Source of the DNA: Candidatus Nomurabacteria bacterium | Lineage (GTDB): Bacteria > Patescibacteriota > WWE3 > UBA101185 > UBA10185 | Assembly: GCA_020631855.1 (NCBI GenBank) | Contig: JACKGU010000002.1 | Coordinates: 234,615-298,614, forward strand | Direction of reading: 5' to 3' | DNA length: 64,000 bases | Shown: positions 355 through 55,165 of the stretch, one piece after another | Position numbering within the stretch: position 1 is the first letter of the stretch | Layout of the letters: each line of letters starts with the position of its first letter | The notes under the pieces: generated by a model | The model's database searches: none | Seen by the model: the letters and a program-made list of their open reading frames with translations, nothing else | Told to the model about the DNA's origin: nothing | Position numbers and translations under genes: made by a program

Positions 355-465
355 ATCAACCACCACTATCTAAGCGGCTGTTTGCTGTAATTGTAAAGCC
401 TGGCATGTTGCATAAGCTACATCTACTAGATCATGCAAGTAGTTTTAAGTAACGAAATTATAAAG
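355..465 (+). repeat. Copy R1 of the intergenic repeat family: 3' module, with an internal ~10 nt deletion
   Basis: atcaaccaccac...gctgtaatt...catgttgcat...acatctactag...caagtag...gtaacgaaattataaag shares the family's conserved core and its 3' end GTAACGAAATTATAAA. It sits immediately upstream of tRNA-Thr. Confidence 0.6.
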
Positions 466-5045: not shown

Positions 5046-6269
5046 GTGGATCTGCTCAAAAAACTTATCATTATTCTATACGCCACCTCATTAGGTTTGA
5101 TGACGGTAAATTTTATTTTTGTAAAAACGCCAAAAACGTATAACATAAAATCCCCGGTTCACGGTAGTTTTTCGGTCCTTGCTGCGGTCGATCAACAAAG
5201 AGAAAATTACATTGTCTACGGCTTTTTACCTTACTGGAAACTTGATAACGCAAAATTCATACAAACAGATAAGCTAACTGACATTGCCTACTTTGGGCTT
5301 AAGATAGAAGGAAACGGCGAAATAAGAAGGTTTGAAGAGCCCGGAGTACTAGAACCAGGCTACAACAACTGGAAAAATAACCCTGAACTTTCAAACCTCA
5401 TTTCTCGAAGCAAAAAAGCCGGAGTTAGATTTGCTTTAACCATAATATCTCACGAAGACGAGGTTTCAGATGAGTTTTTAAATTGCACATCCTGTTGGCA
5501 AACACTAATAAATGAGATAGGGATTGAACTTGAAGAAAAAAATATAACCGACGTCAATCTCGATTTTGAGTACTTTGGATACACAGATTTGGAAACAGCC
5601 TTAAAATACTCTGCCTTTGCTAAACAGCTAAACGACACGCTCGATGCTCGTTACAATAACAACTCGAAGGTTATCGTCTCAACATTTGCCGATTCTGTTG
5701 TTAAACCAAGAGTCACACACATTGACACGTTAGCAAAATATACAGACGGGCTTTTTGTTATGGCATACGACTTTCACAGGCCCGCCTCAGCTACTGCAGG
5801 ACCAATCGCGCCTTTGGGCGGAATGGGCGATAAAAGCTCTTACGACGTGATCACAATGCTCAAAGCGTACCTATCCACTATGTCGCCCGATAAAATAATT
5901 TTAGGCGTGCCGTACTACGGCTACAACTGGCTAATCGACGAACAAGCACCTTATGCAAACAGGGTTGAAGGTAACGACTACATAGGATACTCCGAATCTC
6001 AGCCTTACGAAACAATTGTATACGATATTAAGGAGCTAAATTCTTTAATTTTATGGGATAACATAGGGCAAACTCCATATTATTACTATCGATCTCCGGA
6101 CTCAGGAGCTTTGAGAGTCGTTCACTTTGAAAATAAAGACTCTTTAAAAATGAAGTATGGGCTTGTTAAGCAATACAACCTGGGCGGTGTCGGATTATGG
6201 GCCTTAGGTTACGATGGCCAGCTCCCTGAACTATGGGACTTACTGGGGAAAGAGTTTGGGAAAAAATGA
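5046..6269 (+). CDS. Glycoside hydrolase family 18 (chitinase-like), membrane-anchored
   Basis: DVNLDFEYFGY matches the GH18 catalytic DxxDxDxE motif; MAYDFH and YYGYNW match further GH18 motifs. N-terminal TM anchor; GTG start at 5046. Confidence 0.7.
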   Translation: MDLLKKLIIILYATSLGLMTVNFIFVKTPKTYNIKSPVHGSFSVLAAVDQQRENYIVYGFLPYWKLDNAKFIQTDKLTDIAYFGLKIEGNGEIRRFEEPGVLEPGYNNWKNNPELSNLISRSKKAGVRFALTIISHEDEVSDEFLNCTSCWQTLINEIGIELEEKNITDVNLDFEYFGYTDLETALKYSAFAKQLNDTLDARYNNNSKVIVSTFADSVVKPRVTHIDTLAKYTDGLFVMAYDFHRPASATAGPIAPLGGMGDKSSYDVITMLKAYLSTMSPDKIILGVPYYGYNWLIDEQAPYANRVEGNDYIGYSESQPYETIVYDIKELNSLILWDNIGQTPYYYYRSPDSGALRVVHFENKDSLKMKYGLVKQYNLGGVGLWALGYDGQLPELWDLLGKEFGKK

Positions 6270-6376
6270 AGACTCCGTGGACTGAAATCCCACGGCTCTT
6301 CTTTCTTTGCAGTTGAGAGCTCACGCTTTCATCTTCGAGCTAAAGCACAGGACCTTCCCGATGCAGAAATAAATAG
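6266..6376 (+). repeat. Copy R0: solo 5' module of the repeat family, placed between the GH18 stop codon and tRNA-Val
   Basis: ATGAAGactccgtggactgaaatcccacgg...cgagctaaagcacaggaccttcccgatgcagaaataaat is about 80% identical to the 5' halves of R5 and R4. Its first bases (aTGAag) include the GH18 TGA stop codon. Confidence 0.6.
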
Positions 6377-6468
6377 CGTGTAGGTTCGAAACCACTAACT
6401 AAGTTGAAATATCTTTATCTATGAGAGGCTTCTTCGCAAAATATGTGACAGGTTAGGTGTTTTTATTA

Positions 6469-6545
6469 TGGTGGTCGGAACAGGACTCGAACCTGTGACC
6501 CCTGCAATGTGAATGCAGTGCTCTAACCAACTGAGCTACCCGACC
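6469..6545 (-). tRNA. tRNA-Val (anticodon CAC), with encoded CCA
   Basis: The reverse complement GGTCGGGTAGCTCAGTTGGTTAGAGCACTGCATTCACATTGCAGGGGTCACAGGTTCGAGTCCTGTTCCGACCACCA folds as a cloverleaf: 7-bp acceptor, anticodon stem CTGCA/TGCAG with loop UUCACAU, discriminator A73. Confidence 0.85.
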
Positions 6546-6599: not shown

Positions 6600-7148
6600 G
6601 TGCTTTTTGTTACTATATTATGTATGCCAAATTTTCGAAGAGCCGCACTCCATTTTTTACTCGATACAATTGAAATATTAGTTATAGGTACTTGCCTTGC
6701 CGCTTTCTCTTGGCTTGTAATTGCAGAGGCTGTAGAGGTTACAGGAGATTCAATGCTCCCAACACTACAGAATAGAGAGAGATTGATTGTAGAAAAGGTT
6801 TCGATAAAACTAGATAAGGTGGGACGTGGCGATATAATTGTCTTTAAATCCCCCCAGGATGATAAATTATTAATAAAAAGAGTAATCGCATTACCAAACG
6901 AATACCTGGAAATTATTTCACAAGACGTTTATGTGGACGGGAAGATGCTTCCAGAACCTTATGTCTCAAATCACGAAAACATGTCATCAATGAAAGTTCA
7001 ATTAAAAGATGGGGAATATTTTGTAATGGGAGACAACAGAGGCGTGAGTAACGACTCTAGAAGGTTCGGCCCCATTAAACAAAGCTCAATATTCGGCCAC
7101 GCCGTACTAATAATCAGCCCCGTGCAAGAATTTAGAATAATTAACTAA
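6600..7148 (+). CDS. lepB: Signal peptidase I (S26 family)
   Basis: GDSMLPTL carries the catalytic Ser box; GDIIVFKSP, LIKRVIALP (Lys box) and FVMGDNRGVSNDSR match the other S26 boxes. One N-terminal TM segment. Confidence 0.8.
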   Translation: MLFVTILCMPNFRRAALHFLLDTIEILVIGTCLAAFSWLVIAEAVEVTGDSMLPTLQNRERLIVEKVSIKLDKVGRGDIIVFKSPQDDKLLIKRVIALPNEYLEIISQDVYVDGKMLPEPYVSNHENMSSMKVQLKDGEYFVMGDNRGVSNDSRRFGPIKQSSIFGHAVLIISPVQEFRIIN

Positions 7149-7173
7149 AAAAACAACCCCAGAATCCCTCTAC

Positions 7174-7295
7174 AATCAACTGCCACCAGCTTGTGCAGGT
7201 GGTTTGCTGTAATTTCTTTGCACTGCAAAGCCCAACATGTTGGGTAATCTGCATCTACTAGCCTGCGCAAGTAGATTTAGGTAACGAAATTATAA
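7174..7295 (+). repeat. Copy R2: 3' module, followed directly by a 13-nt stub of the 5' module
   Basis: atcaactgccaccagcttgtgcaggtggtttgctgtaatttctttgcactgcaaagcccaacatgttgggtaatctgcatctactagcctgcgcaagtagatttaggtaacgaaattataaa. The next bases (7296-7308), ATGAAGGttcagg, match the 5'-module start ATGAAGGctccgtgg. It lies between the convergent 3' ends of lepB and rpmA. Confidence 0.65.
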
Positions 7296-7344
7296 AATGA
7301 AGGTTCAGGAAAATTGCAAACTTTTTACGATGAGCTTGAATCTA

Positions 7345-9926: not shown

Positions 9927-12788
9927 CTAAGCCAAATTTTGAACCCTATATTCAGTAGAAAATTCAATTTCTTCAGCCCCGACTTTATCTTTAATGTAAT
10001 CACCAAACATCTTTAGTATCTCGGCATTGTCAGCCTCGTCCATTAAAAATACTTTAACCCTGTCCGAGACGTCTAGATTTTCTTCTTTTCGCATATCTTG
10101 TATTTTTCTTATTAAGTCGCGCGCCGCTCCTTCAAGCTCTAGCTCGCGAGTAAGTGTTGTATCAAGATAAACTTTGTACTCTTTTGACTCAGAAAAAGGC
10201 ATTGCAGATATTTGAGAAGGTATTTCCGAACCGACATGTACAACCTTAACATTAACCTCATCCTCTATTAAATCCGAAAATAAGTTCAAAGATTCACTTG
10301 TAACATAAAGTCCTGCTAAAGGCTGCCTTATCTTTATTGCTTCCGAAACTCTTACAGAAAGCGCCAGCGAAACAACCTCACGCGTATTAGCCATTCTCTG
10401 AAGTATCTCAATCTCGGATTGCTCCAGCTCTTTGTAAGAAGGGAAAAAATCAAAATGCACGGAACCGAATTCTGTATAGTCGGGTAAATTAAGGGTCTGG
10501 TAAATCTCCTCTGCCATGAAAGGCACAAAGGGTGCAATTAGCTTACTTAAGGAGCTCAAAACAAAAAATAATACATGTAGGGATTCAGCATCTCCTGAAT
10601 TTATGCGGTCTCTAGAACGTCTTACATACCAGGTAGATAAATCATTGACGAGGGGGGCAAGCTGCCGTGCCGCCTCCATAACTGTATAGTCATCCATTTT
10701 CTCCACAACAACATTGATCGTCTCCTGCAATCTTGCCAACACCCATTTATCCAAAACATTATCGCTTTTCGGAACATTTAAATCAGGTTCGAATTCGGCC
10801 TTATTCGCATATGTTACAAAATATTTTACGCAATTCCACAACGGTAAAAAAAACTCTTTGCGGGCGTCGATCAAAACCTGCTCATAAAATCTTGGACTTT
10901 CTCCCTGCACAATAGGCGAATTCAATAAAAAGTATCGTAAAACATCTCCGCCGTACTTGTCTAATACTGTATCAAGCGGCTGATAATTTTTTTTGCTTTT
11001 GCTTAACTTCTTACCCTTTTCGTCAAGCAACATACCTGAAACTACAACATTTTTGTAAGGAACCTTATCAAATAGTGCAACACCGAGAACGTGCATTGTG
11101 TAGAACCAGAGCCTTACCTGATCATCACTCTCCGAAATATACTCGGCAGGGAAGGTCTCTTTAAAACGATCTTGATTCTCAAATGGGTAGTGCAGTTTGG
11201 CAAAAGGCACAGCTCCTGAATCAAACCAAACATCGACAACATCAGGTACTCTTCTAAAAGTGCCTCCACTAGACTTATCGTCCCAAGTCACTTCGTCCAC
11301 ATAAGGCTTGTGAGGATCTTCGAGTTTAACACCGGAAAGCTCTTCTAACTCTTGGAATGAGCCAATAACATGTATATCTCCTGTCTTGTCGTTAATCCAA
11401 ACCGGCAAGGGTGTACCCCAATACCTACTTCTGCTCAGCGCCCAGTCACGGACATTTTCCAACCAAATCTTCGAAGCACCGTTTTTTGTATGTTCAGGCT
11501 TCCAGTTCACTTTTTGGTTTTCCTCAAGCATTCTTTCTTTTAGTTTTGTGGTTGCTAAGTACCAGCTTCTTATTGGCTTATAAATCAAAGGGGTTCCGGT
11601 TCTCCAGCATATCGGCATTCTGTGTAGAATAGTTGAGGAATCAAACAGCAGGCCTTTTTTCTCTAAAGATTCCAGAATTATCGGATTTGCGTCTTTATAA
11701 AATTTGCCTTTAAGCTCTGGGATTTCATCAGTAAACCGCGCGCTCTCGTCCAGGTAATCAAAAAGTTGTATTCCTAAAGCCATAAAAACATCAAAATCCT
11801 CAGCGCCGTAGGGGGCAAGATGAACAATGCCCGTGCCGTCCTCATCGCTTGCATGATCAGCAATAACGATTCTAAAACAACCCTCAGCTCTTTTACTCAA
11901 GTAGTAATCAAACAAAGGCTCGTACTCACGGCCTTCAAGATCAGAACTTGAAAGTTTTTCTAATACTTTATATGAATTATTCTTAAAAACGTCTTCTAAT
12001 CTAGCCTCAGCAACATAATATGTTTCACCTTCATACTGCACTTTTGCATAAACAACCTTTTTCCCTACCGCCAGCATTAAATTAGAAGGCAGGGTCCACG
12101 GGGTTGTAGTCCATGCCAATACAAAAGCGTCTTCATCTATAAGTTTGAACTTTAATGTGACTGAAGGATCTTCAAGCTCTTTGTAGCCACCATCTTGAAC
12201 TTCATGAGTTGATAAGCTCGTGCCAGCACGTGTTGAATAAGCAACAACCTTATATCCTTGATAAAGAAAGCCTTTGTTGTAAAGTTCTTTTAGAGCCCAC
12301 CACATGCTTTCGATATAGCTTGCGTCCATTGTGTAATACATGTCGGATTCATCAAACCAACGTCCCAAACGACTTTCATAAGCAAACATGGCGTCACGGT
12401 GCTTTAGAACAGATTGTCTGCACATCTCGTTAAATTTAGCGACACCAAACTCTTCAATATCGTCTTTGTGTTCAAAGCCCATCTCTTTTTCTATTTCAAA
12501 CTCAACCGGAATTCCTTGGCAATCCCAACCAATATTTCTTGAAACTAGGTAATTTTTCATAGACCAATATCTTGGAATAACGTCTTTCATGGTCCAGGTT
12601 ATAGCATGACCATAGTGAGGCATGCCGTTTGCAGTTATAGGCCCGTCATAATAAACTTTTTCGACTGAATCTTTTCTCAACTCCTTCAAACTCTCTACAG
12701 CTTTTAGAGATTTCCATAACTCTAGCTTTTGCTTCTCAAGATCGGGAAAATCAGGACTTGTAGTCAAATCTTTAAATTTTTTCTTCAT
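9927..12788 (-). CDS. ileS: Isoleucine--tRNA ligase, class I, archaeal/eukaryotic-like long form
   Basis: 953 aa with the HIGH-type motif PHYGHAI, the editing-domain motif WTTTPWTLPSN and the KMSKS-type motif KLSKSKKNY. The length and motif set fit IleRS better than ValRS or LeuRS. Confidence 0.75.
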   Translation of the reverse strand: MKKKFKDLTTSPDFPDLEKQKLELWKSLKAVESLKELRKDSVEKVYYDGPITANGMPHYGHAITWTMKDVIPRYWSMKNYLVSRNIGWDCQGIPVEFEIEKEMGFEHKDDIEEFGVAKFNEMCRQSVLKHRDAMFAYESRLGRWFDESDMYYTMDASYIESMWWALKELYNKGFLYQGYKVVAYSTRAGTSLSTHEVQDGGYKELEDPSVTLKFKLIDEDAFVLAWTTTPWTLPSNLMLAVGKKVVYAKVQYEGETYYVAEARLEDVFKNNSYKVLEKLSSSDLEGREYEPLFDYYLSKRAEGCFRIVIADHASDEDGTGIVHLAPYGAEDFDVFMALGIQLFDYLDESARFTDEIPELKGKFYKDANPIILESLEKKGLLFDSSTILHRMPICWRTGTPLIYKPIRSWYLATTKLKERMLEENQKVNWKPEHTKNGASKIWLENVRDWALSRSRYWGTPLPVWINDKTGDIHVIGSFQELEELSGVKLEDPHKPYVDEVTWDDKSSGGTFRRVPDVVDVWFDSGAVPFAKLHYPFENQDRFKETFPAEYISESDDQVRLWFYTMHVLGVALFDKVPYKNVVVSGMLLDEKGKKLSKSKKNYQPLDTVLDKYGGDVLRYFLLNSPIVQGESPRFYEQVLIDARKEFFLPLWNCVKYFVTYANKAEFEPDLNVPKSDNVLDKWVLARLQETINVVVEKMDDYTVMEAARQLAPLVNDLSTWYVRRSRDRINSGDAESLHVLFFVLSSLSKLIAPFVPFMAEEIYQTLNLPDYTEFGSVHFDFFPSYKELEQSEIEILQRMANTREVVSLALSVRVSEAIKIRQPLAGLYVTSESLNLFSDLIEDEVNVKVVHVGSEIPSQISAMPFSESKEYKVYLDTTLTRELELEGAARDLIRKIQDMRKEENLDVSDRVKVFLMDEADNAEILKMFGDYIKDKVGAEEIEFSTEYRVQNLA

Positions 12789-16373: not shown

Positions 16374-16663
16374 ATTAAAGAGGATTTCAGAAACCGGTAG
16401 GCTTAAACTGCCTGAAAGACTACAGGTTTATGGAATCCGGTCAGGAATTTTATACTTTTTTGTTTCAAGTCTTATCTTTTCATAATCAAAAAAACAATAC
16501 CACTAATGCCGATTAATACTTGAACTATTTTGAACTACTGTGGAAATTAAAAATCAATAAACAGGTATTTTTTTTAACCGATCCTATATTGCAACATTCT
16601 AAATTTTAACATTTATGATTTTCTATTACTGCTAAAGGGTTTGAAAGCTCTTAATAACTCTAA

Positions 16664-16781
16664 GCAACCACCAGCTGACGCAGGTGATTTGCTGTAATTT
16701 CTTTGCTCTGCAAAGCCCAACATATTGGGTAAACTACATCTACAAGCCTACACGAGTCGTTTTAAGTAACGAAATTATAAA
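16664..16781 (+). repeat. Copy R3: 3' module, with remnants of the 5' module upstream (~16630-16663)
   Basis: agcaaccaccagctgacgcaggtgatttgctgtaatttctttgctctgcaaagcccaacatattgggtaaactacatctacaagcctacacgagtcgttttaagtaacgaaattataaa. It sits between the ftsZ 3' end and the nrdJ 5' end. Confidence 0.65.
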
Positions 16782-31851: not shown

Positions 31852-32071
31852 ATGAAGAGACTACGGACATAAGTCCGTAGCCTCGCCCCTACTGCTCCAC
31901 GCATAAACTTTCACCGCGAACTAAAGCAAGGGGCCTTCCCGCTGCAGAAATCAACCACCGCCAGCTTACGCTGGCGGTTTAATGTAATTTCTTTGCACTG
32001 CAAAACCCAAAATGTTGGGCAAACTAAATCTACTAGCCCACGTAAATAGGTTTGAGTAACGAAATTATAAA
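31852..32071 (+). repeat. Copy R4: full-length bipartite element (5' module plus 3' module)
   Basis: ATGAAGagactacggacataagtccgtag...gaactaaagcaaggggccttcccgctgcagaaatcaaccaccgccagcttacgctggcggttt|aatgtaatttctttgcactgcaaaacccaaaatgttgggcaaactaaatctactagcccacgtaaataggtttgagtaacgaaattataaa. It lies between the uvrA 5' end and the 3' end of a LysM gene. Confidence 0.7.
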
Positions 32072-43481: not shown

Positions 43482-43708
43482 ATGAAGGCTCCGTGGACTA
43501 AAGTCCCCAGTCTCTTCTTTCTCCGCGGTTGAAAGCCCACGCCTTCATCCCCGAGCTAAAGCACGAGGTCTTCCCGCTGTGGAAATCAACCTCCGCCAGC
43601 TTACGCAGGTGTTTTGCTGTAATTTCTTTGCTCTGCAAAGACCAACATACTGGGCAAACTACATTTATTAGCTTACGCGAGTAGAGTTTTAAGTAACGAA
43701 ATTATAAA
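43482..43708 (+). repeat. Copy R5: full-length bipartite element
   Basis: ATGAAGgctccgtggactaaagtcc...cgagctaaagcacgaggtcttcccgctgtggaaatcaacctccgccagcttacgcaggtgtttt|gctgtaatttctttgctctgcaaagaccaacatactgggcaaactacatttattagcttacgcgagtagagttttaagtaacgaaattataaa. Its 3' end abuts the pgm stop codon with a 3-nt gap, and the 5' end lies 70 nt upstream of the ppsA ATG. Confidence 0.7.
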
Positions 43709-43711
43709 TGA

Positions 43712-45178
43712 CTAGCCTTGCTTTAATTCAACTTCTCCTAAAGGTATAAAATCAACCCCTTGAGAAGCCAAAAGACTTAAAATCATTAAATGCACCTCAT
43801 TTAAAAGATCGATATTATCTAGCTCGATAAGGATTGTTAAGTTTGGAGTCGTATTGGATACGCGAATTAAAAACCAAGAATGTTCACTTAAACTAACTCT
43901 AACACCATCAACATAGCTTACTCGATAAAAATTTGCCTCTTGCTCCTTTACATTTTGGACTATACCGGAAATTACCGAGAACTTTTTTTCGTCACTTACA
44001 GGTATTTTTATTTCTCCCGAAGTGTAACTTTTTTGCACGCCCTTCATTAACTCAAATAAGCTGATGTCCAGATCTTCCAGCATCTTTAAAAAATATAAGG
44101 AATTAAAAATACCATCGTCATACCCATAATTTATGTCTAAATATATATGCCCTGAGTTTTCGCAGCCTAAAACTGCACCGGAGTGCATCGCATCCGAAAA
44201 AAATGTGTGACCGGTTTTTATCATGCGCGGAGATCCCCCAAGACTAAGAACGCGTTCGTGCAAATAACTGGAGCACTTAGGATCATAAACCACTAAAGAT
44301 TTTCCGGAGCGGCCCTCCAAGTAGTAAGGCAGCATTGCTTGGACAAGTCTGTCTGTAGAGTAGCTATTGCCCTTTTCGTCAATTAAGCCCATACGATCGC
44401 AATCAGGATCTAAAGCAATTCCGAGCTCAAAAGAAGAATCATAAGAAAGTGCAACTTCTTTAAAGGAGTTCATATAAAACTTGTTTTCAGGATTCGGGGT
44501 CACTGAATCGACACCGTACTCAGGCTCGTTGTTTATAACAGTCAAGTCAAGGTTAAGCGCACCATAAGTTTCAGTCGCATATTCTGAAATGGTTGAGTGT
44601 CCGCAATTTAATATAACTTTATGTTTTTTGTTAAATACAAAATAATCTCTTATGTAAGAAAAATATTGCTGATTTAAGTCTTCTTTTCTCTTTGTCCCTT
44701 TATTAAATTCAAAATTTCGTGCACGTACCTTGTCTCTAATCTCCTGGATGTCAGCAGAACTAAAAGGAACTGCATTTCTGTAGTCAAGGCGAAACCCATT
44801 GTACGATAAGGGGTTATGGCTTGCTGTTATTTCTATTCCAGCATCAAAATCTTGAGTACAAGTTAAAAAATGCACTATTGGGGTTAATGAGACTCCAATA
44901 TCTATAACATCAGCGCCAACCGCAACCAAACCTTCAATAAAAAAACTTTGCAAAGAACCCGAGCTGGGTCGAGAATCTCTTCCAACGACAACTGTAACAT
45001 TTTCTTTTGCTAGTTTTTCAAACAGTAAAGTTCCAACCGCACACCCTATTAAGTAAGCGCCCTTTACATCAAGATCTTTATCTACAATGCCCCTTATATC
45101 GTATGTACGAAAAATATTGTCATTTGCTAACATGCTATACGTAATATTATCAGGGAATATTAAATGTTTAAAGTACAC
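43712..45178 (-). CDS. Alpha-D-phosphohexomutase (phosphoglucomutase/phosphomannomutase family)
   Basis: GIEITASHNP carries the active-site phosphoserine loop (TASHNP), with Mg-binding and sugar-binding loops downstream. The true start is probably an internal Met (MLANDNIFRTYDIRG). Confidence 0.75.
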   Translation of the reverse strand: MYFKHLIFPDNITYSMLANDNIFRTYDIRGIVDKDLDVKGAYLIGCAVGTLLFEKLAKENVTVVVGRDSRPSSGSLQSFFIEGLVAVGADVIDIGVSLTPIVHFLTCTQDFDAGIEITASHNPLSYNGFRLDYRNAVPFSSADIQEIRDKVRARNFEFNKGTKRKEDLNQQYFSYIRDYFVFNKKHKVILNCGHSTISEYATETYGALNLDLTVINNEPEYGVDSVTPNPENKFYMNSFKEVALSYDSSFELGIALDPDCDRMGLIDEKGNSYSTDRLVQAMLPYYLEGRSGKSLVVYDPKCSSYLHERVLSLGGSPRMIKTGHTFFSDAMHSGAVLGCENSGHIYLDINYGYDDGIFNSLYFLKMLEDLDISLFELMKGVQKSYTSGEIKIPVSDEKKFSVISGIVQNVKEQEANFYRVSYVDGVRVSLSEHSWFLIRVSNTTPNLTILIELDNIDLLNEVHLMILSLLASQGVDFIPLGEVELKQG

Positions 45179-51849: not shown

Positions 51850-52052
51850 TCCTGCTGATGCTTTTAGAATGTTGGCGCATCTACACTTTTACTCCTTTCA
51901 GCCTTCGCCGATAAGCTAAAAGCTGAAGAACGTCAACCGCACCGGCTTATGCATGTGTTTTTCTGTAATTTCTTTGCGCTGCGAAGCACAACATGTTGGG
52001 TAAACTACATCTACTAGCTTACGCAAGCAGTTTCAAGTAACGGAACTATAAG
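51850..52052 (+). repeat. Copy R6: diverged full-length element (the 5' module is recognisable from ...cgataagctaaaagctgaag...)
   Basis: ...ccgataagctaaaagctgaagaacgtcaaccgcaccggcttatgcatgtgtttttctgtaatttctttgcgctgcgaagcacaacatgttgggtaaactacatctactagcttacgcaagcagtttcaagtaacggaactataag. It lies upstream of mraZ, at the left edge of the GC-rich island. The 5' boundary is uncertain. Confidence 0.55.
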
Positions 52053-52112
52053 TAATGAAAAAGGAGGGGATTCAGGAAAACCTGTAATGCAAGGCCTTCC
52101 CTCCGCCCCCCC

Positions 52113-52508
52113 TTAGAAAAAATAGTTCAGCAGGTAGTAAATACCACCTGCTGCCAAGACCCCCATTACCACAACGACAAACAGGCAACAACCGTTGCCA
52201 TCGTCGCCGGGTGACGGCGGTATTATATCTTCCATGCTCCAGCCAGATCGCCGGAGCGCAACTATGACAAGCAATGCAGCTATGCCTAGCGCAAACGCTA
52301 GGACAAAGGCATTGCCTGCCCAGACGAGGAGACCCTCGTCCTTTTCCTCGACCACAGCGGGCGCTGTGGTCGGAGTAATTTGCTCAGCCACCGTAGTGGT
52401 GGGCTGGGCAACTTTGGTTTTCGGCGGCTGCGCCACCAAAAACACACCCACGGCACAAATGGCCATGGGTATAAGTAGGGTCGCTACCGACCCTATAAGT
52501 TTTTTCAT
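52113..52508 (-). CDS. Small secreted/membrane protein of unknown function, encoded in GC-rich DNA
   Basis: Strong SD (GGAGGG-aaaa-ATG), signal peptide MKKLIGSVATLLIPMAICAVGVFLV, a Pro/Thr-rich linker and two C-terminal TM helices. Local GC is about 55-60% against about 38% around it, and the codon usage looks atypical for the window. Confidence 0.4.
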   Translation of the reverse strand: MKKLIGSVATLLIPMAICAVGVFLVAQPPKTKVAQPTTTVAEQITPTTAPAVVEEKDEGLLVWAGNAFVLAFALGIAALLVIVALRRSGWSMEDIIPPSPGDDGNGCCLFVVVVMGVLAAGGIYYLLNYFF

Positions 52509-54678: not shown

Positions 54679-54800
54679 AATCAACTGCCGCTAGCTCACT
54701 CAGGCGGGTTACTGTAGTCTCATTACGCTTCAAAGCCAACATTTCGGGCAAAGTACATCTTCTAGCCTATGCAAGTGGTTTTGAATAACTAAACTATAAA
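54679..54800 (+). repeat. Copy R7: diverged 3' module
   Basis: aatcaactgccgctagctcactcaggcgggttactgtagtctcattacgcttcaaagccaacatttcgggcaaagtacatcttctagcctatgcaagtggttttgaataactaaactataaa. It lies in the divergent region between glyQS and the small gene paired with the Y-family polymerase. Confidence 0.5.
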
Positions 54801-54841: not shown

Positions 54842-55165
54842 ATGTACGAGGCGCTAAATCAACCTATAGAAGTATTGATTTCCTTTACCAAAAATGGCCC
54901 CATACCGACAAGTTTCATATGGAAAAAGAAGGAATACTACATCCAAGAATTAAATTTTATATATAAAGAAAAAAGAGGAAATGAAACAATTCACTACTTT
55001 ATGGTCTCTGATGACTCTGCGGCGTATAAGCTATGTTTTGAAACCGAGAGCCTGAGATGGTTACTTATGGAGGTATATGATACGCTGCAACCGGAGAACG
55101 GCGTTTCTGCAGTAAAAGAAAGAATAACTATAACTTATGCGAGACAGAATAATATTACATGTTGA
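54842..55165 (+). CDS. Small hypothetical protein overlapping the start of the Y-family polymerase gene (possible polymerase accessory factor)
   Basis: 107 aa with no recognised motif. Its 3' end overlaps dinB by 29 nt, which suggests translational coupling. The layout resembles the yolD-uvrX / yqjX-yqjW pairs in Firmicutes, but that is inference only. Confidence 0.35.
   Translation: MYEALNQPIEVLISFTKNGPIPTSFIWKKKEYYIQELNFIYKEKRGNETIHYFMVSDDSAAYKLCFETESLRWLLMEVYDTLQPENGVSAVKERITITYARQNNITC

Follow-up and report, generated by a model that had tools for sequence, protein, structure and literature searches.

A gene-less 117-nt repeat family of probable IS200/IS605 type in a WWE3 bacterium

We analysed a 64-kb stretch of bacterial DNA, here called the window (Candidatus Nomurabacteria bacterium, contig JACKGU010000002.1 of GCA_020631855.1, positions 234,615 to 298,614), which carries a family of short dispersed repeats, and concentrated on one copy, R2, whose 3' end an initial annotation had read as the head-to-tail junction of a mobile element. 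Our analysis leads us to conclude that R2 is probably one of at least 18 copies of a gene-less, non-autonomous, 117-nt element of the IS200/IS605 family of insertion sequences, similar to palindrome-associated transposable elements (PATEs), in a WWE3 bacterium. A Y1 (HUH) transposase encoded elsewhere would excise the minus strand of the element as a circle, with its right end joined to its left end, and the circle would reinsert 3' of a TTTAT motif on the lagging-strand template. The anatomy of the family, including true tandem copies at three loci (L035, L036 and L014), agrees with the earlier proposal of mobility through circular or single-stranded intermediates with head-to-tail joining; the site beside R2 itself is probably not such a joint.

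Units, ends and flanking motif

A profile search of the window with nhmmer returned seven units (the 3' modules of the initial annotation) and three 5' modules, all in one orientation. A fourth 5' module, R1five, lies just beyond the window in the same orientation as the rest, and the 10 kb past each window end held no additional copies. Five extra loci (L012-L016), apparently from the same organism, came from a pattern scan of metagenomes, and L035-L038 were reached through a protein-database search with the translated element, which matched three spurious open reading frames (ORFs). The contigs carrying these loci are most likely other parts of the same genome, because the samples that yielded them also yielded contigs identical to the window, at similar coverage in one sample. 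In all, the ~130-140 kb of non-redundant DNA examined contains 18 distinct copies, counted by their 3' ends, with a median pairwise identity of 79%.

On the plus strand, the repeat at R2 is a 117-nt unit that reads ATCAAC...GAAATT, and each solo copy is followed by ATAAA. On the complement, AATTTCG or a close variant has YTTAT directly before it in 18/18 copies (15 TTTAT, 3 CTTAT), and the minus-strand layout is YTTAT|AATTTCGTTAC or a close variant, 17 nt, a left hairpin, ~45 nt, a right hairpin and TAGTTGAT|. The initial annotation had suggested looking for a conserved flanking motif at the termini; one exists, but it is ATAAA and not the ATGA that had been put forward. ATAAA had itself been counted as part of the conserved 3' terminus, an assignment that we revise: it is a flanking motif and is absent between tandem units. 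The repeats of the window and their associated features are as follows.

R1 unit, 355-459, minus strand: 105 nt, with an internal 10-nt deletion; ATAAA at 460-464; tRNA-Thr begins 17 nt later
R2five, 6266-6368, plus strand: 5' module without a unit, the 'empty-site' counterpart of R4 and R5; ends ...GATGCAGAA, then ATAAAT (6369-6374); terminator-like first hairpin; the GH18 gene has its TGA stop within the ATGA
Degenerate 5'-module tail CTAAAAAAACAACCCCAGAATCCCTCTACA, 7149-7174, plus strand: directly upstream of the R2 unit; starts at the lepB stop codon; aligned by eye with CTAAAGCACGAGGTCTTCCCGCTGTGGAA of R5
R2 unit, 7175-7291, minus strand: 117 nt; reads ATCAAC...GTAACGAAATT on the plus strand; nhmmer E = 2e-43; minus strand made up of AATTTCGTTAC, 17 nt, left hairpin, right hairpin and CAGTTGAT
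R2 flanking target motif, 7292-7296, minus strand: TAM-like; ATAAA on the plus strand, TTTAT on the minus strand, where it abuts the left end
Heptamer ATGAAGG, 7297-7303, plus strand: CCTTCAT on the minus strand; beyond both the R2 unit and its target motif
Unique hairpin, 7301-7343, plus strand: in the 48-nt spacer from R2 to the rpmA (L27) stop codon; its 5' arm includes AAGG of the heptamer
R3 unit, 16663-16776, minus strand: followed by ATAAA ATAAAG, a doubled target-like motif
R4 5' module, 31852-31949, plus strand
R4 unit, 31950-32066, minus strand: 117 nt; ATAAA at 32067-32071; fold z = -5.0
R5 5' module, 43482-43584, plus strand: starts ATGAAGG, ends ...GGAGCCTTCAT
R5 unit, 43585-43703, minus strand: 119 nt, between GTGGAA and ATAAAT of the 5' module; ATAAA at 43704-43708
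R6 unit, 51932-52047, minus strand: diverged; flanking motif ATAAG
R6 downstream stretch, 52084-52125, plus strand: TAATGCAAGGCCTTCCCTCCGC...AGAAAAAATAG resembles a 5'-module tail; also within the terminator hairpin of a minus-strand gene
R7 unit, 54680-54795, minus strand: most diverged copy

The true tandems define the limits of the unit. In L035, a pair of 117-nt units with a difference of 1 nt meets at ...GTAACGAAATT|ATCAAC..., and the same GAAATT|ATCAAC junction links a truncated unit to a complete one in L036 and a degenerate copy to an intact one in L014. Since the three loci share this junction and lack ATAAA within it, the repeating unit is ATCAAC...GAAATT and ATAAA lies outside. In both L014 and L036 it is the TTTAT-adjacent copy that is intact and the distal copy that is degenerate or truncated. 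On the minus strand, the tandem junction reads GTTGAT|AATTTCG, which is the sequence predicted for a circle junction. Tandems of this kind might also arise without an enzyme that recognises the ends, if replication slipped or dispersed copies crossed over unequally, and the short match to a 5' module that follows R2 (discussed below) could then be pure chance. The genome is AT-rich, the match is short and of marginal significance once corrected, and the two units of L035 are as similar as after a recent duplication, all of which suits this explanation. However, one exact junction recurs at three independent loci and coincides with the ends of solo copies, and slippage on a 2-nt microhomology would not repeatedly reach the same phase, and we consider it very improbable that chance and slippage account for the family.

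Comparison of 5' modules with and without a unit points in the same direction. ATAAA is kept beside those that have none (GCAGAA|ATAAAT at R2five and GCAGTAA|ATAAAA in L014), and the occupied ones read GCAGAA(unit)ATAAAG at R4 and GTGGAA(unit)ATAAAT at R5, which indicates that the 'full-length' element is a unit inserted at a fixed point beside a 5' module. The unit-less sites have exactly the joint predicted for scarless excision, although they are paralogous 5' modules. No target-site duplication was found, the flanks of 17-18 copies sharing only the one-sided YTTAT and an ambiguous 2-nt AT. Terminal inverted repeats are also absent: the plus-strand ends ATCAAC... and ...GAAATT are not complementary, and of the sole inverted repeat, formed by TGTAATTTC and GAAATTATA, one side is internal.

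Two further properties of the unit sequence were noted. The two most conserved blocks, TGTAATTTCTTTGC (7213-7226) and GTAACGAAATTATA (7282-7295), are present in every unit and are mutually complementary over 14 positions, with 1 mismatch and 2 G-T pairs; R7 has one compensatory G-C pair, and the outer block of the pair holds a TATAAT box on the minus strand. The unit-start sequence AAATCAACC recurs within coding sequence at 43749-43757 and 54856-54864, which is 41 nt past the end of R5 and 56 nt past that of R7, and AAATCAAC occurs only 5 times on the plus strand of the window.

Each unit carries an imperfect palindrome near either end, CTACT-TGCGTAAGCT-AGTAG on the left and CCACC-TGCGTAAGCT-GGTGG on the right, in the same (direct) orientation. 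The 10-nt core AGCTTACGCA is common to both hairpins, compensatory C-G to T-A changes distinguish their stems, and they fold alike, with a stem, a 1x1 mismatch, a GC pair and a tetraloop; the minus strand of R2, folded as single-stranded DNA, forms the two hairpins at -22.1 kcal/mol (z = -3.15). The left hairpin foot stands 17 nt from the flanking motif in 6/7 copies measured and 19 nt from it in R5, and the right hairpin lies ~8 nt from the element end. AAAA stands immediately 5' of the left hairpin foot, facing TTAT of the flanking motif. A hairpin built in the same way, CCTCG-TGCTTTAGCT-CGGGG, occurs on the minus strand of the R5 5' module, at 16 nt from the TTTAT-proximal end of that module, and 5' modules end ...CTTCAT| in 4/5 copies. 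An origin of the two modules as ancient paralogues was considered but is not supported, with local-alignment shuffles giving p mostly >0.05 and TTTCTTTGCA as the only shared 10-mer.

The common orientation of the copies can be related to replication. GC skew is negative along the entire plus strand of the window, so the strand on which TTTAT precedes the left end is the G-rich strand. From the skew only, we infer the direction of replication and take this G-rich (minus) strand to be the lagging-strand template. The same relation between element strand and skew as in the window is seen in L012, L013, L015, L035 and L037.

The sequence beside R2

The initial annotation had described the 3' end of R2 as being followed directly by the start of a 5' module, with 13 of 15 positions matching. 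Window positions 7281-7296 read GTAACGAAATTATAAA and 7297-7309 read ATGAAGGTTCAGG, as it quoted, and the 5' module of R5 begins ATGAAGGCTCCGTGG at 43482; the ungapped identity is only 10/15 (10/13) to R5, however, and falls to 9/15 for R2five and 7/15 for R4. What matches exactly is the 7-nt prefix ATGAAGG of the R5 5' module, or 9 nt (AAATGAAGG) counting the terminal AA. ATGAAGG is found 4 times on the plus strand of the window, a per-position frequency of 6e-5, and an identity of 10/15 is reached at 4.5e-4 of positions; allowing for copies, offsets and reference starts, we estimate a corrected p of ~0.004-0.03, which is marginal. Past the first 7 nt, the R2 flank has no residual similarity to any of the 5' modules (local-alignment shuffles, p = 0.19-0.90), and no other homologue of the 48-nt flank was found; it is unique sequence. 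The hairpin at 7301-7343 folds at -11.2 kcal/mol on the plus strand (z = -1.7) and at only -5.1 kcal/mol on the minus strand.

ATGA does occur after the 3' ends of R5 and R6, as had been pointed out (ATTATAAATGActag and actataagTAATGAaaaa, respectively). The TGA at R5 is a 3-nt spacer before the stop codon (cta, 43712-43714) of a convergent minus-strand phosphoglucomutase gene, and the ATGA at R6 is the U-tail of a -30 kcal/mol terminator hairpin belonging to a convergent minus-strand gene (52113-52508). Within a few nt of the 3' end, ATGA is present at R2, R5 and R6 only (3/18). With 15/18 distinct copies lacking it, an outcome that the initial annotation had itself named as refuting, the proposal that ATGA or ATGAAG is a preferred target or end motif does not hold.

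We weighed the possibility that the R2 site is a genuine relic of a tandem or circular junction, in which a 3' module led into a following 5' module that has since been mostly lost. In its favor are the rarity of the exact 7-nt prefix, or of 9 nt with the preceding AA, and the existence of true tandems within the family. R1five is followed by GAAGA, which on the other strand gives TCTTCAT|TTCTGC, the form of a junction between the right and left ends of a 5' module. R6 is followed by AATGAA... and, ~30 nt on, by the stretch that resembles a 5'-module tail (scoring 27 in local alignment where the null gives 17+-3, p ~0.01 uncorrected). At R2, however, ATAAA separates the unit from ATGAAGG, and canonical junctions of the family have no ATAAA between elements; for this reason we do not read the site as a circle or tandem junction. 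The similarity also ends after 7-10 nt, a 7-nt stub is not expected from scarless excision, and the p value corrected for multiple testing remains marginal. A junction relic at R2 is, in our judgement, unlikely.

Read along the proposed active strand, the site is ...CCTGAACCTTCAT|TTTAT|AATTTCG..., with the heptamer upstream of TTTAT. On the minus strand, the R5 5' module closes with these same 7 nt, CCTTCAT, which also fit a TTNAT pattern common to the target motif TTTAT and both right ends (TTGAT and TTCAT). R3 carries a second TTTAT where R2 has the heptamer. The heptamer most likely has one of two origins, as a TTNAT-type motif of the T-rich target context or as a very short right-end relic (...CCTTCAT|) of a neighbouring 5'-module element. 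The flagged junction alone carries little weight.

Proposed mechanism and its alternatives

In the transposition mechanism that we propose, the ends of the element would be TTTAT|AATTTCGTTAC... and ...GGTGGTAGTTGAT|, and the circle junction is predicted to read ...CTGGTGGTAGTTGAT|AATTTCGTTACTT.... Insertion would leave TTTAT next to the left end, so that another unit entering at this motif would give tandems such as GTTGAT|AATTTCG. Repeated insertion at one TTTAT would place the newest copy next to the motif, which fits the intact proximal and degenerate distal copies of L014 and L036. The 'full-length' elements would have formed when a unit inserted between TTTAT and an older, related 5' module.

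IS200/IS605 elements provide the model for these steps. Insertion always places their left end 3' of a specific motif of 4-5 nt, which is retained; similar hairpins lie inside both ends, transposition proceeds through circular single-stranded DNA with abutted ends and prefers the lagging-strand template, and it leaves a scarless donor joint and no target duplication (PMC5027513; PMC10055086). In IS608, the guide AAAG just 5' of the left hairpin foot recognises TTAC (PMC5027513). The AAAA/TTAT combination found here may be a parallel to AAAG/TTAC, and we regard the analogy as suggestive. Like IS200/IS605 elements (IS608 and ISDra2), the present family has no terminal inverted repeats, no target duplication and direct-oriented palindromes inside both ends; its left end abuts a motif, here TTTAT, and the element ends in a related motif, TTGAT. 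The single orientation, with the active strand on the putative lagging-strand template, and the identity of the head-to-tail junction with the predicted right-end-to-left-end circle junction are further likenesses. The spacings in IS608 are ~19 nt from the motif to the left hairpin and ~10 nt from the right hairpin to the end. Unlike IS200/IS605 elements, however, the family has no tnpA or tnpB in or near any copy, its unit is only 117 nt and its catalysis is putative. Its host, a WWE3 member of the candidate phyla radiation (CPR), also sets it apart, as does stacking at one target motif, where a unit sits on another unit or on a 5' module.

PATEs, which derive from IS200/IS605 and IS1341 elements and have no genes, are known from Haloquadratum walsbyi (PMC3119063) and Geobacillus stearothermophilus (PMC10055086). 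They keep only the ends with their palindromes, occur in many copies, are presumed to be mobilised in trans, and often carry a guide-RNA scaffold (PMC10055086). The units described here are likewise non-autonomous and multicopy and consist only of left and right ends with palindromes. Published PATEs are usually several hundred bp long, whereas these units are far smaller, with ~45 nt between the hairpins, and no autonomous partner with the same ends was found in the DNA examined.

Repetitive extragenic palindromic (REP) sequences and the related bacterial interspersed mosaic elements (BIMEs) and REPINs are high-copy intergenic hairpins, often at gene 3' ends, and are tied to the REP-associated tyrosine transposase RAYT (TnpA-REP), one Y1 HUH enzyme per genome. 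A Y1 enzyme encoded once per genome in this manner would explain the lack of a transposase near our copies. REPs are single palindromes of 20-40 nt with a 5' GTAG, typically in inverted pairs. The present family differs from REP/BIME in having two direct hairpins per 117-nt unit, defined ends, a flanking target motif and head-to-tail stacking, and neither inverted doublets nor a RAYT were seen in the DNA examined.

Several observations weigh against transposition by an IS200/IS605-type enzyme. Gene tables and a Pfam scan of the ~130-140 kb revealed no Y1 transposase, RAYT or TnpB. The copies are old, given their median pairwise identity, and most could be fossils. Neither an orthologous empty site nor a strain polymorphism was found, all strains being identical at R2, and the unit boundaries are ambiguous by the 2-nt AT common to both ends. 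T1, a hairpin that the 5' module carries near its other end, is unlike the unit hairpins in sequence. Several copies have AAAC, not AAAA, 5' of the left hairpin and are still flanked by TTTAT, and GC skew is ~0 at L014 and L036.

A different account is that the repeats are structured transcription units or modules of 3' untranslated regions (small-RNA genes, or terminator/insulator cassettes resembling REP, BIME or BOX sequences) that spread by recombination, with ATGAAG supplying foot and tail of a terminator hairpin. In the 5' module, the first hairpin does resemble a terminator and comes directly after the GH18 and groEL stop codons; the L014 copy of it has a 12-13-bp stem followed by T6, and CTTC in the T-tract forms pairs with GAAG. 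TATAAT or TATAGT opens every unit on the minus strand, a 10/12 promoter-like site is present at R4, and 9/12 copies lie directly downstream of the end of a gene co-oriented with the minus-strand reading. However, covariation is not significant by RNAalifold and pair counting (53/500 shuffles reach the observed score, with one clear AU/GC exchange pair), and G-U versus A-C mismatches are near balance between the strands (24 vs 16). Rfam has no match to the repeats, and the copies bear no consistent relation to downstream genes. A minus-strand promoter was tried as a candidate and rejected: its -10 box is invariant, but the -35 box is weak, with >=4/6 matches in 5/13 copies against an 18% null. 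Recombination would also leave the precise end-to-end tandems, the flanking TTTAT and the duplicated end hairpins unexplained. We think it improbable that the repeats are RNA or terminator modules; the terminator- and promoter-like features may be side effects of the elements, or uses that the host makes of them.

Two further features of L014 were noted. Positions 10868-10891 form a second strong terminator, AAGCACCTCC-AAAA-GGAGGTGCTT with T-rich sequence after it, and an orphan AATGAAGGC, a 9-mer of the R5 5'-module start, lies at 10921-10930; both are located between the tandem units and the 5'-module-like terminator that follows groEL.

It is highly doubtful, in our view, that the units are transcribed into a short RNA extending 3' into flanking DNA and so constitute an orphan omega-RNA-like guide gene for a TnpB/TldR-type protein encoded elsewhere. 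The idea is based on the minus-strand TATAAT ~7 nt before the conserved body, on the end exactly at the right-end boundary and on a density of about one copy per 8 kb. In a search of Rfam 15, which includes guide-RNA and ribozyme families, only two tRNAs in the window reached the gathering score, and when R5 was scanned permissively, HgcC was the sole hit, on the opposite strand and with 14.6 bits where the threshold is 50.

Coding potential and other classes of element were also considered. A 16-codon frame opens the 5' module (MKTPWTEIPRLFFLCS / MKAPWTKVPSLFFLRG; 6266-6316 and 43482-43532), and in R2five its ATG overlaps the GH18 TGA stop. The frame is probably non-coding, because it is not kept in R4 or R1five, where this small peptide is broken or has no start. 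A minus-strand frame through the unit is interrupted at different places among copies and was likewise rejected. By eye, none of a dif/Xer site, an integron attC site, a miniature inverted-repeat transposable element with inverted termini, a group II intron remnant or DnaA boxes fits the repeats.

Genomic setting of the copies

We considered and rejected a reading of R2 as one element split by cargo, in the order 5' module, tRNA-Val, lepB and 3' module. A syntenic relative has GH18, 17 bp, lepB, 4 bp and rpmA (L27) without modules, which identifies lepB as a resident gene. In addition, R2five and R2 both contain the same ~36-nt CTAAAG...AAATCAA segment and are thus two separate elements. The relative also has LysM, 17 bp and Big_13 with no copies, and the elements are insertions relative to it. 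The closest homologue of the window's LepB (6624-7148) lies in this syntenic relative; at 49% identity, it is the nearest outside the species among 5.8 billion proteins. The lineage is therefore poorly sampled, which limited all comparative tests.

Convergent gene ends adjoin some of the repeats. In five loci, one lies 0-4 nt from the element TTTAT (L013 1918-1924; L014 5289-5295 and 11198-11205; L012 4517-4524; window 43708-43714), and in L013 the stop codon of a 204-aa ORF falls inside TTTATAAT. Such proximity is expected if the ancestral spacers were only 4-17 bp, but it implies that stop codons are supplied or abutted by the insertions.

All three tRNA genes of the region are within ~100 nt of a module: tRNA-Thr (481-556) after R1, tRNA-Val (6469-6545, minus strand) after R2five and, after R1five, a tRNA that by eye looks like tRNA-Asp (L004 18070-18145, minus strand of the locus). 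In the syntenic relative, there is no tRNA-Thr or tRNA-Val at these places, and the same Asp-like tRNA sequence stands upstream of LysM. Modules and tRNA genes seem to have gathered in common intergenic gaps. Just past R2five, at 6374-6400, GTGTAGGTTCGAAACCACTA is similar to the T-arm of tRNAs (GGTTCGAAnCC); no tRNA is called at this place by ARAGORN, and the sequence may be a piece of a tRNA.

In reverse complement, the window corresponds to ~216-280 kb of contig JACKGV010000006.1 (GCA_020631795.1). Its proteins are labelled candidate division WWE3 or Candidatus Nomurabacteria, that is, as those of a CPR bacterium, and its gene content is of a housekeeping kind, with the division and cell wall (dcw) cluster, uvrABC, ribosomal proteins, glycolysis and cell-envelope genes. 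Searches for the family beyond this organism were negative. A pattern scan for the element in the genome_contigs collection of GTDB representatives gave chance matches only, and three scans of viral_contigs found no element copies, the two loci met there resembling the window only in the pattern itself. BLAST of the element against phages and plasmids gave no matches, nhmmer searches with the short flanks gave nothing usable, and we found nothing relevant in the literature on repeat elements of CPR bacteria or Saccharibacteria. Short-read contigs of the same organism obtained from other samples (L008, L021, L026 and the ends of L014) begin or end within units, which indicates that the repeats fragment its assemblies.

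Streamlined genomes of CPR bacteria are generally thought to be poor in mobile DNA. If our interpretation is correct, this WWE3 genome harbors a dense family of unusually small mini-elements of the IS200/IS605 type, which would illustrate head-to-tail stacking through a target motif retained at the left end and would explain why assemblies of the organism break at element sites. It predicts a single Y1 transposase elsewhere in the genome, circle junctions that read GTTGAT|AATTTCG, and TTTAT as the target of insertion.

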